Shown here: piece after piece, positions 5,370 to 53,886 of the stretch
Numbering within the stretch: the first letter of the stretch is position 1
Layout of the letters: the number at the start of each line of letters is the position of its first letter
Assembly: GCA_043821365.1 (NCBI GenBank)
Contig: JBDRCX010000006.1
Location: forward strand, 711,417-775,416
Reading direction: 5' to 3'
DNA length: 64,000 nt
DNA from: Candidatus Micrarchaeota archaeon
Lineage (GTDB): Archaea > Micrarchaeota > Micrarchaeia > Anstonellales > Bilamarchaeaceae
Notes under the pieces: generated by a model
Databases searched by the model: none
Told to the model about the DNA's origin: nothing
Seen by the model: the letters and a program-made list of their open reading frames with translations, nothing else
Made by a program: the position numbers and the translations under genes

Positions 5370-6017
5370 TTATTCTTTTGGTTGCTCTTCTTTAGGATCT
5401 TCTTCTACTGATATTTGTTCAAAGTAGTTTAGATCATAAGTGAATTCTTCGTATGATTTTATCTTACCCTGAGCCATCATCAATTCTCTTGAGAGAATGT
5501 AGAATATAAGTGCAAGAGATCGTTTTCCTTTGTTGTTTATTGGGATTATATGATCAATGAATTTTGTTTCATTATCAGTATCACACAATGCAATAACAGG
5601 AACACCATTTTTTGCACTTTCTATTAATGCCTCATGTTCACCTTTTGGATCACATACCATCACAATTTTTGGTTCCATGAATTTTTCTACATTCATGTTT
5701 GTCATTGTTCCAGGTACAAATCGTCCTTTGACTAGGTTGACTCCAGTGAGTTCAGCAAATTTACTTGCAGGGTTGCTAGAATAGACACGGGAAGCAACTA
5801 TGCACACTTCTTCTGGTTTGTATCTTGCTAATATTTTTGCTGCACTTACCAGTCTTTCTGCACTTTTTCTCAAATCAAGTATGTAGAGGCCATCGTCTCT
5901 TCTTTTGAAGATATAGTCTCTCATATCACTTGTTCTTATCTTGGTGCCAATGTGTACACCGGCTTCAAGAAAGATTTCCTGTTTTACAGGCATTCCAGTT
6001 TTATCTGTTGTTGTCAT
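5370..6017 (-). CDS. rps2: Ribosomal protein uS2
   Basis: LEAGVHIGTKIRT, YIFKRRDDGLYILDL, and VCDPKGEH...ALCDTD are typical of archaeal S2. Confidence 0.95.
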   Translation of the reverse strand: MTTTDKTGMPVKQEIFLEAGVHIGTKIRTSDMRDYIFKRRDDGLYILDLRKSAERLVSAAKILARYKPEEVCIVASRVYSSNPASKFAELTGVNLVKGRFVPGTMTNMNVEKFMEPKIVMVCDPKGEHEALIESAKNGVPVIALCDTDNETKFIDHIIPINNKGKRSLALIFYILSRELMMAQGKIKSYEEFTYDLNYFEQISVEEDPKEEQPKE

Positions 6018-6034
6018 ATTTTCATCCTCCTGTT

Positions 6035-6165
6035 GTCCTTTTTAGAAAAAGGACCAAAAATCTGGTTTTGTTAAGTTTTCCTCTTCGAGGAAAAATGATT
6101 TAACTAAAATCCATCGGATTTTTCATCAACCAGTTTTTTATGTCACTTTTTTCCAAAAAAGTGAC
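6035..6165. repeat. Cluster of four palindromic hairpins between the tRNA-Pro-like gene and rps2
   Basis: The hairpins are gtcctttttagaaaaaggac (6035-6054), ttttcctcttcgaggaaaa (~6076-6095), aaaatccatcggatttt (~6108-6124) and gtcacttttttccaaaaaagtgac (6142-6165). Confidence 0.6.
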
Positions 6166-6420
6166 TGGGGCCGCTGAGATATGCTCCTCCCAACCGCAGG
6201 AATTTGTAGTTGAGAAGTTTGAATTTCTTGCGCTTTTTGGTAAAAAGCGCCCAAAAACTTAACTTGCTAATTTTTGCTCGCAAAGCTCGCAAAAATAGTG
6301 TTGCCACCAAAAACCCGATAGGGTTTTTCAACAAAGAATTTTGGAGCGCCTTTTTTCAAAAGGCGCACTCAGATAACAAGCACCCCAAGCTTGCAGGATA
6401 CCAGGTTACCTCACGGCCCC
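6166..6420 (-). tRNA. tRNA-Pro(GGG)-like gene with a ~182-nt insertion in the T-loop; possibly a pseudogene
   Basis: Minus-strand read:
- Acceptor, D-arm and anticodon arm: GGGGCCG TG AGGT AACCTGGTA TCCT G CAAGC TTGGGGT GCTTG TTAT CTGAG.
- Then a ~182-nt hairpin-rich insert.
- Then CTCAG CGGCCCC A.
The acceptor, D-arm, anticodon arm and T-stem all pair. The residual T-loop would be TGCATAT, which lacks the universal U55 and A58. Confidence 0.5.
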
Positions 6421-22639: not shown

Positions 22640-22754
22640 TGGACACGGAGGGATTTGAACCCCCAGCCTTCCACAGTTTGGCAAACTAGTTTTGATCAAA
22701 CTTTTACTAAAAGTTTGGCGCCAAGCGGATGCTCTACCGTTGAGCTACGTGCCC
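22640..22754 (-). tRNA. tRNA-Ala(GGC) with a 43-nt canonical-position intron
   Basis: Minus-strand read: GGGCACG TA GCTC AACGGTA GAGC A TCCGC TTGGCG [intron] GTGGA AGGCT GGGGG TTCAAAT CCCTC CGTGTCC A. The G3:U70 alanine identity pair is present. The intron contains the hairpin CAAACTTTTAGTAAAAGTTTG and is bounded by a CCAAAC direct repeat. Confidence 0.85.
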
Positions 22755-22794
22755 GTGCAACTTTTTAGTAAAAAGTTGCTCAAAAATAGTCAAT

Positions 22795-42354: not shown

Positions 42355-42582
42355 GCCCCTGTAGCGCAGTCCGCTTTTTAGGAAAAAGCTTGGCAAAAAC
42401 TGGTTGTTGTTTTTGTAGTTTTCTAATAAAAAGCAGGTGTTAAGGTAGCGCGCGTCCTTGGTATCGCACCTTTTTTCAAAAAGGTGCGCCAAAAACTTTT
42501 GTAAATAGTGACCCAGTTTTGGGCCGCCTTTTACCAAAAGGCGGAGAGGACGAGGCCGCGAGTTCAATTCTCGCCGGGGGCT
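42355..42582 (+). tRNA. tRNA-Thr(GGU) with two introns (D-loop ~70 nt, canonical 37/38 position 83 nt)
   Basis: Read: GCCCCTG TA GCGC AGT [42371-42440] TAAGGTA GCGC G CGTCC TTGGTA [42464-42546] A GGACG AGGCC GCGAG TTCAATT CTCGC CGGGGGC T. The exons sum to 75 nt and all four stems pair. Confidence 0.75.
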
Positions 42583-53550: not shown

Positions 53551-53591
53551 TTTAATCTATTTAATATAACTGAGTAGAAGTATTTAAAAAA

Positions 53592-53791
53592 CGCCCCAAC
53601 CGCGATTTGAACGCGGACTACAACCTTTCCTCCCCGAACCTTTTACAATCTTGAGGAAAACTATATTAAAAGGTCCGATCCAAAACAAATTATCAAAAAC
53701 AATCATCGTTTTACGACAATAGGTTCCAGTTCCATTCTTCCTAAAAACGGGGTCGCAGGGTCGTGTCATATCCAGGTTAGACTATTGGAGC
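53592..53791 (-). tRNA. tRNA-Arg(GCG) with a 126-nt canonical-position intron
   Basis: Minus-strand read: GCTCCAA TA GTCT AACCTGGATA TGAC A CGACC CTGCGA [126 nt] . GGTTG TAGT CCGCG TTCAAAT CGCGG TTGGGGC G. The intron ends pair (CCCCG...CGGGG). Confidence 0.8.
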
Positions 53792-53886
53792 ACCAACGAA
53801 CATATTTAAATATATAGCTTTTAAATTATTCCTGCATTTCATGTAGAGAAATCTATAGTTCTTAGAATGCTATAACCTTAGGTGGT

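Follow-up and report, generated by a model that had tools for sequence, protein, structure and literature searches.

Two predicted introns around a T-loop mini-exon in the tRNA-Pro(GGG) gene of a Bilamarchaeaceae archaeon

In ARMAN-2 (Candidatus Micrarchaeum acidiphilum), 56% of the tRNA genes are disrupted (Fujishima et al. 2011, Nucleic Acids Res 39:9695, PMC3239211), and the precursor of tRNA-Pro(GGG) carries introns at positions 53/54 and 59/60 (PMC3239211, Fig. 1C). The epsilon2 splicing endonuclease of this archaeon cleaves both strict and relaxed motifs in vitro (PMC3239211). Here we describe the tRNA-Pro(GGG) gene of a Candidatus Micrarchaeota archaeon of the family Bilamarchaeaceae, located within a stretch of 64,000 nt (contig JBDRCX010000006.1, positions 711,417 to 775,416) that we refer to as the window; coordinates below are those of the window unless a contig is named. 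With a probability that we put at roughly 0.88, the locus is a functional, single-copy tRNA-Pro(GGG) gene whose 255-nt minus-strand precursor has two T-arm introns of the archaeal bulge-helix-bulge (BHB) type, to be spliced by proteins. We call them intron A (at 53/54) and intron B (at 58/59 or 59/60, see below).

The locus is the same kind of gene as that of ARMAN-2, in another order of the same class. In both cases, a tRNA-Pro(GGG) gene has an intron at 53/54, two adjacent T-loop introns surround a mini-exon, the lineage is Micrarchaeia, and the endonuclease is a three-unit enzyme of the epsilon2 type. There are also differences. The relatives of the window's genome are labelled Anstonellales/Bilamarchaeaceae, an order other than that of ARMAN-2, and, in a comparison with the published description of ARMAN-2, intron A differs in being 144 nt long and built from four hairpin modules. 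Furthermore, whereas both ARMAN-2 motifs are of the strict form hBHBh' (PMC3239211), with the second intron at 59/60, the genus of the window has a relaxed intron B motif whose supported register is shifted by one base, to 58/59. A first-pass annotation, made from the letters of the window alone, had called the locus unusual on any explanation. This was overstated, as the same layout was published for ARMAN-2 in 2011 (PMC3239211), and the known picture of archaeal tRNA splicing is thus unchanged. A full-text literature search found no description of the relaxed, one-base-shifted intron B motif of this genus, of the four-hairpin intron family or its non-intron copy, or of the invariant loop of intron B. 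What is new here is the 144-nt four-hairpin intron, which tRNA-Pro(GGG) shares with tRNA-Ile(UAU) and tRNA-Thr(UGU), its copy in the spacer between the tRNA gene and rps2, and the invariant loop of intron B.

The tRNAs of the Thermoproteales/Crenarchaeota, with multiple introns and introns at non-canonical positions, offer a second comparison. They resemble the present system in that a gene can hold as many as three introns, that the T-loop is among the sites interrupted, that a broad-specificity endonuclease cuts relaxed motifs, and that different tRNA genes carry introns of related sequence. In contrast, their enzyme is of the (alpha-beta)2 type instead of epsilon2, and the family found here consists of palindromic modules of GC-stem, T-run and A-run and includes a non-intron copy in an mRNA leader/spacer. 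Transposition has been proposed as the way in which the Thermoproteales/Crenarchaeota introns spread (cited as refs 1, 2 and 29 in PMC3239211). Within the window's own genome, tRNA-Thr(UGU) shares the hairpin-module intron family and the same enzyme, while the gene described here is a GGG isoacceptor with the T-loop mini-exon layout.

The gene, as read from the sequence, occupies 6166-6420 on the minus strand and comprises 255 nt, 73 of them exonic. Exon 1 (6368-6420) covers tRNA positions 1-53, that is, the 5' strand of the acceptor stem, the D arm, the anticodon arm with its GGG anticodon, the variable loop and the 5' strand of the T-stem. It is followed by intron A (6224-6367, 144 nt), the T-loop mini-exon TTCAA(A) (6218-6223; U54 U55 C56 A57 A58, with A59 added for a cut at 59/60), intron B (6180-6217, 38 nt in 59/60 notation, and one base to the left if 58/59) and exon 3 (6166-6179), which supplies U60, the 3' strands of the T-stem (CTCAG) and of the acceptor stem (CGGCCCC) and the discriminator A73, with CCA not encoded. 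These lengths sum exactly (53 + 144 + 6 + 38 + 14 = 255 nt), and the intron borders were placed by orthologue comparison. The acceptor stem is GGGGCCG/CGGCCCC, with UG after its 5' strand, and the discriminator is A. The D arm is AGGU-AACCUGGUA-UCCU, followed by G26, the anticodon arm is CAAGC-UUGGGGU-GCUUG, and the variable loop is UUAU. The first-pass annotation had recognized the acceptor, D-arm, anticodon arm and T-stem, all of which are indeed present (on the minus strand, from 6420 to 6166), and its distance of about 190 nt between the T-stem halves agrees with the 188 nt that we measure between CTGAG (6372-6368) and CTCAG (6178-6174). It had taken the intervening DNA for a single insertion of about 182 nt, leaving a T-loop TGCATAT that would lack U55 and A58. 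This part does not hold: the canonical T-loop segment TTCAAA lies inside the supposed insert, at 6223-6218, so that there are two introns, of 144 and 38 nt, around a mini-exon, and the predicted mature T-loop, TTCAAAT, is canonical. Its suggestion of a T-loop intron survives insofar as the T-loop does contain endonuclease-type introns, but there are two of them (at 53/54 and at 58/59 = 59/60), not one. What had been observed was largely right, and the interpretation half right.

Removal of both introns would leave a 73-nt product whose T-arm, CUGAG-UUCAAAU-CUCAG, has a 7-nt loop with U54, U55, C56 and A58. ARAGORN calls this spliced sequence tRNA-Pro(ggg), the canonical cloverleaf being regained once the introns are taken out. 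The unspliced locus is reported as a tRNA neither by ARAGORN, run with or without introns, nor by Rfam, at the gathering threshold or with E-values up to 10; weak Rfam matches on the raw locus (rli49, snoRNAs) were set aside as chance matches to A/T-rich hairpins. Since standard tRNA finders miss the gene, an annotation would wrongly list the decoder of CCU and CCC as missing. These two codons make up 29% of the proline codons in the long open reading frames of the genome, which measures 1.2 Mb, has 36% G+C and is 87% complete. No more than about 18 of its tRNAs score above the Rfam cut-off, which gave an early hint that interrupted tRNA genes are the norm there.

The division into two introns is seen in a set of 52 orthologues (L numbers) from related genomes (G numbers), 29 of them from the window's own genus. 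Both introns are present in 25 of the 29 genus genomes (two of these have a third intron at 37/38), intron B alone in three (one with a 37/38 intron as well) and intron A alone in one, although genus members are mutually related and counts across the genus are therefore not independent. Over the whole set, the gene is uninterrupted in L031 and L032, has intron A alone in L007, L051 and L052, has intron B alone in L006, L024 and L033-L049, and carries the third intron in L026-L028; L050 has both introns outside the genus. Intron A is absent from L006, L024 and L027 and from most other genera, and measures 21-144 nt where present. In the remaining genera of the order, some orthologues lack introns and others have intron B only (10 to 225 nt), intron A only (21 nt) or both. 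The longest intron B, of about 225 nt, occurs in one of these other genera (L047, on G132:C38), as against 10-115 nt elsewhere. Within the genus it is 37-38 nt long in 25 of the 27 aligned members, L013 (36 nt) and L025 (41 nt) being the others.

Where intron A is absent (L006, L024, L031-L049), TTCAA(A) is contiguous with CTGAG, and where intron B is absent (L007, L031, L032, L051, L052), it is contiguous with the downstream TCTC[AG]G. For example, G006 (L006) and G022 (L024) have CUGAG-UUCAA without interruption and then a 37-nt insert ahead of (A)U-CUCAG. In G021 (L007), CUGAG is followed by a 68-nt insert and then by UUCGAAU-CUCGG-CGGCCCCA, which amounts to one intron ahead of a canonical T-loop. 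The spliced 73-mer is 93-99% identical to the uninterrupted genes of sister genera across positions 1-73, and the gene of G148 (L031) matches it at 72 of 73 positions. The other uninterrupted orthologue, from G102 (L032), scores 54.2 bits on the Rfam tRNA model (RF00005). In addition, the same genome has an uninterrupted tRNA-Pro(UGG) (C2:2712-2787) whose T-arm is letter-identical to the predicted one.

A BHB motif at the junctions, for which the first-pass annotation had proposed to search, can be drawn for intron A, and its inner helix covaries. The central helix H is formed by U48 C49 U50 G51 (6370-6373) and, at the 3' end of the intron, by AAGA (H', 6226-6229). The 5' strand is followed by the bulge A52 G53^U and the 3' strand by A A^U54 (6225-6223), with carets marking the predicted cuts. 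In the inner helix h', GCGC at 6363-6366 pairs with GCGC at 6230-6233. The arrangement is that of a BHB motif, with two 3-nt bulges (AG^N and AA^U) flanking a 4-bp helix, and the cuts were placed after the second nucleotide of each bulge, as seen in the crystal structure of ARMAN-2 EndA with RNA (PMC12397907). We assessed the pairings in a junction alignment, A2, of 28 orthologues (24 of them distinct), by counting paired cells and repeating the count in 500 shuffles. The junction helices are paired in 93.2% of cells, compared with a shuffled mean of 75%, and none of the 500 shuffles reached this value. When the partner strand is slid by one column, pairing drops to 44-45%. Helix H (UCUG/CAGA, with AAGA in the window) is paired in 97.9% of cells over the 24 distinct orthologues, and L051 and L052 have a compensatory variant, UCCG/CGGA. 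The inner helix is paired in 88.5% of cells and shows changes on both sides at all four of its pairs (GCGC/GCGC, GAGC/GCUC, AAAC/GUUU and UGC/GCA). Its two strands double as outer arms of hairpin modules, namely the first and the last of intron A. When the T-arm region is folded without constraints, the minimum-energy structure already includes this long-range pairing across the entire intron, and enforcing H costs only 3.3 kcal/mol.

At intron B, the motif is relaxed. The intron ends in GAGC-AU-A, of which GAGC (H', 6183-6186) pairs with G53 (6368) and U54 U55 C56 (6223-6221) and is followed by A U^A59 U60. The inner helix, h', has 8 bp (6216-6209 with 6194-6187). In an alignment (A1) of 27 genus members, h' is 93% paired and shows both-side changes at 8 of 8 pairs. 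The central helix in register S1 (G53-C56 with G-R-R-Y) is paired in 99% of cells, with C or U opposite G53 in all 27 members, and the motif as a whole is paired in 96% of cells. Register S1 alone leaves a loop of 7 nt, its cuts being A57 A58^ at the 5' end of the intron and N N^A59 U60 at the 3' end. Furthermore, the last base of intron B is A in 27/27 members, while the base after UUCAA varies (A, C or T); this fits an A59 that is supplied by the 3' exon, and hence a cut at 58/59. In the gene of the window, the 58/59 and 59/60 cuts give the same product because they fall in a run of A.

The same anatomy could also be combined with a cut at 59/60, as in ARMAN-2, with a helix over U54-A57, an intact T-stem and the same T-loop, TTCAAAT. 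The annotated position of the second ARMAN-2 intron (PMC3239211) and the occurrence of a strict motif in this register in other genera (L033, L037, L038, L043, L046, L048-L050) speak for this version; the motif there is UUCA/UG[AG]A with bulges AA^N and NN^U, and L046 has a compensatory UCCA/UGGA. For the window's own genus we nevertheless consider it possible but unlikely. A count led us to reject the corresponding register, S2 (H = 54-57), in which A57 can pair in just 5 of 27 members; a U54-A57 helix would also put the 3' cut 2 nt too early and produce a 9-nt loop; and the constant A before U60 and the varying base after TTCAA, just described, speak against it. Several other arrangements were tried and discarded. 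Drawn by hand, a strict motif failed with H = U54-A57 paired to the 4 nt lying 3 nt before the T-stem, with H = U55-A58, and with a mirrored arrangement having its bulges 5' of H. The tail of intron B could also be paired to intron A (GCUCC/GGAGC) or to the variable loop, but neither pairing is kept in L002 or L006. No C/D-box or K-turn motifs were seen in intron B.

A number of observations weigh against the reading of the locus as a functional gene with these two introns, or against the details given above. In the window's own sequence, AAGA places an A opposite G51, so that helix H has three pairs and one mismatch. The outer helix, h, of intron A is weak, and the motif is nearer to HBh' on its 3' side. 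Moreover, alignment A2 was concatenated from junction pieces of fixed length chosen by the analyst. The motif of intron B departs from the strict form, with a 3' bulge of 5 nt throughout the genus and a 5' bulge of 4 nt in the window, the latter due to one extra base, and its central helix has no double changes, because the exon side cannot vary, and therefore shows compatibility only. For this part, the folding model prefers, at -17.9 versus -9.4 kcal/mol, a plain T-stem together with a 10-bp helix that has a 6x7 internal loop. The sense strand of intron A contains four T5 runs, and the intron of G024 has T5-T6 runs. In other archaea, T5 runs are possible (partial) transcription terminators; the runs are evidently tolerated here, which may bear on the termination signals of this lineage. 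Finally, BLAST of the assembly with the exons found no second tRNA-Pro(GGG), a point that the first-pass annotation had wanted checked, but the assembly is 87% complete and a second copy could lie on the missing DNA.

The T5 runs, the failure of tRNA finders to call the locus and the fact that the four-hairpin element is not confined to introns (the adjacent spacer has a copy) speak for a tRNA pseudogene, a former tRNA-Pro(GGG) inactivated by a mobile hairpin-repeat element. The first-pass annotation had proposed a recent inactivation of this kind. We think it very improbable. Exon 1 (positions 1-53) is 98-100% identical in most genus members, which leaves no sign of decay or relaxed constraint in the exons; the two-intron layout is kept in 25 of the 29 genus members, with compensatory changes at the junction helices; and G024 retains the long intron together with its junction pairings, at 84% identity over about 300 nt. 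The lack of another detected tRNA-Pro(GGG) in a genome with so many CCU and CCC codons, and the presence of a broad-specificity endonuclease, also argue against inactivation. A single T-loop intron of about 188 nt with a non-canonical mature loop TGCATAT, an understandable reading as long as the T-stem halves are the sole exon pieces visible without other genomes, is scarcely credible, given that TTCAA(A) adjoins CTGAG or TCTCAG in orthologues lacking one intron, that the uninterrupted L031 and L032 have TTCAAAT or TCCAAAT, and that no BHB motif can be drawn with those borders. An alternative T-arm within the supposed insert, AGAA-ATTCAAAC-TTCT, was likewise rejected, as its loop has 8 nt and it is not conserved.

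The two-intron reading is accompanied by predicted splicing enzymes. A 391-aa protein encoded in the genome, at C6:408632-409123, aligns end to end with the epsilon2 EndA of ARMAN-2 (PDB 4FZ2, E = 4.5e-132) and keeps the catalytic Y236, H251 and K282, the bulge-binding R275 and W384, and Y160/K161 of the ARMAN-specific loop. An RtcB ligase is also encoded (PF01139, E = 1.1e-141). Judging by these homologies, the genome has an endonuclease of the broad-specificity epsilon2 type and an RNA ligase. The RtcB homologue lies in an open frame of 910 aa (G000:C6:673872-676544, plus strand), where about 460 residues separate the two parts of the Pfam match (23-50 and 45-426); this points to an intein or another kind of insertion. 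There is also a second endonuclease-like protein, of 163 aa (G000:C6:480614-480853, plus strand), whose best solved relative is the EndA of M. jannaschii (1A79, E = 2.4e-9).

In the processing pathway that we propose, the AAGA at the 3' end of intron A would pair with U48-G51 and the GCGC/GCGC outer arms with each other, placing the splice sites in 3-nt bulges around a 4-bp helix. Once intron A is removed, G53-U54-U55-C56 would be free to pair with the GAGC near the 3' end of intron B, followed by the 8-bp helix within that intron, to give a relaxed motif whose bulges measure 4 nt (5') and 5 nt (3'). The epsilon2 endonuclease would cut after the second bulged nucleotide on both sides, RtcB would join the exons, and a canonical 73-nt tRNA would result. 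Splicing is probably ordered, with A preceding B, since the central helix of intron B is split by intron A and since the two motifs overlap and exclude each other, helix H of intron A using U48-G51 and the outer helix of intron B using C49-A52.

Intron A belongs to a wider family. The first-pass annotation correctly saw hairpin modules in the intervening DNA, of which there are four, all in intron A: two perfect ones (at 6346-6366 and 6230-6250) and two imperfect. The perfect modules run from a GC-rich stem through T4-6, 2-4 nt and A4-6 back to the stem. The GCTCGCAAA tandem that had also been reported is real as well, at 6276-6293. On the sense strand it reads UUUUGC-GA-GC-UUU-GC-GA-GCAAAA, which we read, from the letters, as a putative hairpin with a symmetric GA/GA internal loop, and the tRNA-Ile intron of G022 is arranged in the same way. 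The genome contains 51 perfect hairpin modules, compared with 0-2 in shuffles. Of these, 28 lie no more than 150 nt from the tRNA spans, which, incompletely known as they are, make up 1.3% of the genome. Over aligned positions, intron A is 85% identical to its G024 orthologue, to the 53/54 intron of tRNA-Ile(UAU) in the same genome (G000) and to that of tRNA-Ile(UAU) in G022, whose tRNA-Pro gene has no intron A; the identity to the anticodon-loop intron of tRNA-Thr(UGU) is 78%. The tRNA-Ile(UAU) gene (G000:C6:414500-414790, minus strand) has three introns, at about 37/38, at 53/54 (the four-hairpin one) and in the T-loop after UUCAAA. Its T-stem, CTGAG/CTCAG, is the same as that of tRNA-Pro, and its G022 orthologue (L003) has the same layout. 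Most genus members carry an intron A of about 55 nt with the same ends, and the long form in the lineage of the window and G024 therefore probably arose when a short intron of this kind either received an insertion or was replaced. The route may have been recombination, by way of the shared T-arm exon sequence.

A diverged, collinear copy of the four-hairpin element fills the 148-nt spacer (6018-6165, minus strand) between the tRNA gene and the rps2 gene. The spacer extends to the start codon of rps2, and the copy stops just short of the GGAGG ribosome-binding site of this gene, which encodes ribosomal protein S2 (5370-6017, minus strand; PF00318, E = 5.4e-28); the tRNA gene does lie upstream of rps2, as had been reported, with this spacer in between. 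The gene order tRNA-Pro(GGG)-rps2 is kept in relatives, and the same spacer architecture is seen in, for example, L009. A global alignment of the spacer with intron A scores 89, against 24.5 +/- 6.2 in 300 shuffles (z of about 10). The first hairpin of the spacer is GTCAC-T6-GG-A6-GTGAC (6165-6142), and its T6 run, coming right after the 3' end of the tRNA, could be the terminator of the tRNA. By inspection, no BHB motif was found at the ends of the spacer copy, and for this reason we do not claim that it is spliced.

These copies raise the question of whether the four-hairpin element, of about 140 nt, is a self-propagating RNA/DNA cassette as opposed to a passive intron. We find this doubtful, though worth setting out. 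The first and last hairpins of the element are near-identical palindromes. If the idea were correct, then wherever the element lands beside a suitable 4-nt complement its outer arms would pair and form the inner helix of a BHB motif. The cassette could thereby colonise several tRNA genes (position 53/54 of tRNA-Pro and tRNA-Ile, and the anticodon loop of tRNA-Thr) and persist there harmlessly, and copies outside tRNAs, such as the one in the rps2 leader, would remain unspliced.

The loop of intron B, UACAAAUUCCUGCG (14 nt, 6195-6208, minus strand), contains invariant columns of the genus alignment. Its core, CCUGC, is invariant in the 27 genus members and ACCUGCG is nearly so, though the adjacent helix has changed at every pair. 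The loop might be a functional binding site or a decoy, a proposal that we rank as less likely than the propagating cassette. We also observed that (A)CCUGCG(G) of the loop matches the 3' strand of helix 45 of the 16S rRNA over about 7-9 nt (GGGGAACCTGCGGATAGATCACCTCC in the genome, at C3:~125503). As ACCTGCGG occurs 15 times in the genome, this likeness may be due to chance, and we record it as unexplained and not as evidence.

The series of 52 genomes shows a single orthologous gene in all combinations from no intron to three and amounts to a clean natural experiment on how introns are gained, lost, shifted by one base and replaced. In addition, the 5-nt 3' bulge found throughout the genus offers a natural substrate for probing how far epsilon2 enzymes tolerate bulges that are not 3 nt long, a matter raised by the 2025 crystal-structure paper (PMC12397907), which is without a co-crystal with a relaxed substrate. 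Elsewhere in the window, two hairpin modules are present at 42465-42544 (within 42355-42582), and two further tRNA genes are interrupted: a tRNA-Ala(GGC) with a 43-nt intron (22640-22779; Rfam, 57.4 bits) and a tRNA-Cys(gca) on the minus strand (53591-53792), for which ARAGORN, run with introns, reports an intron of 126 nt.

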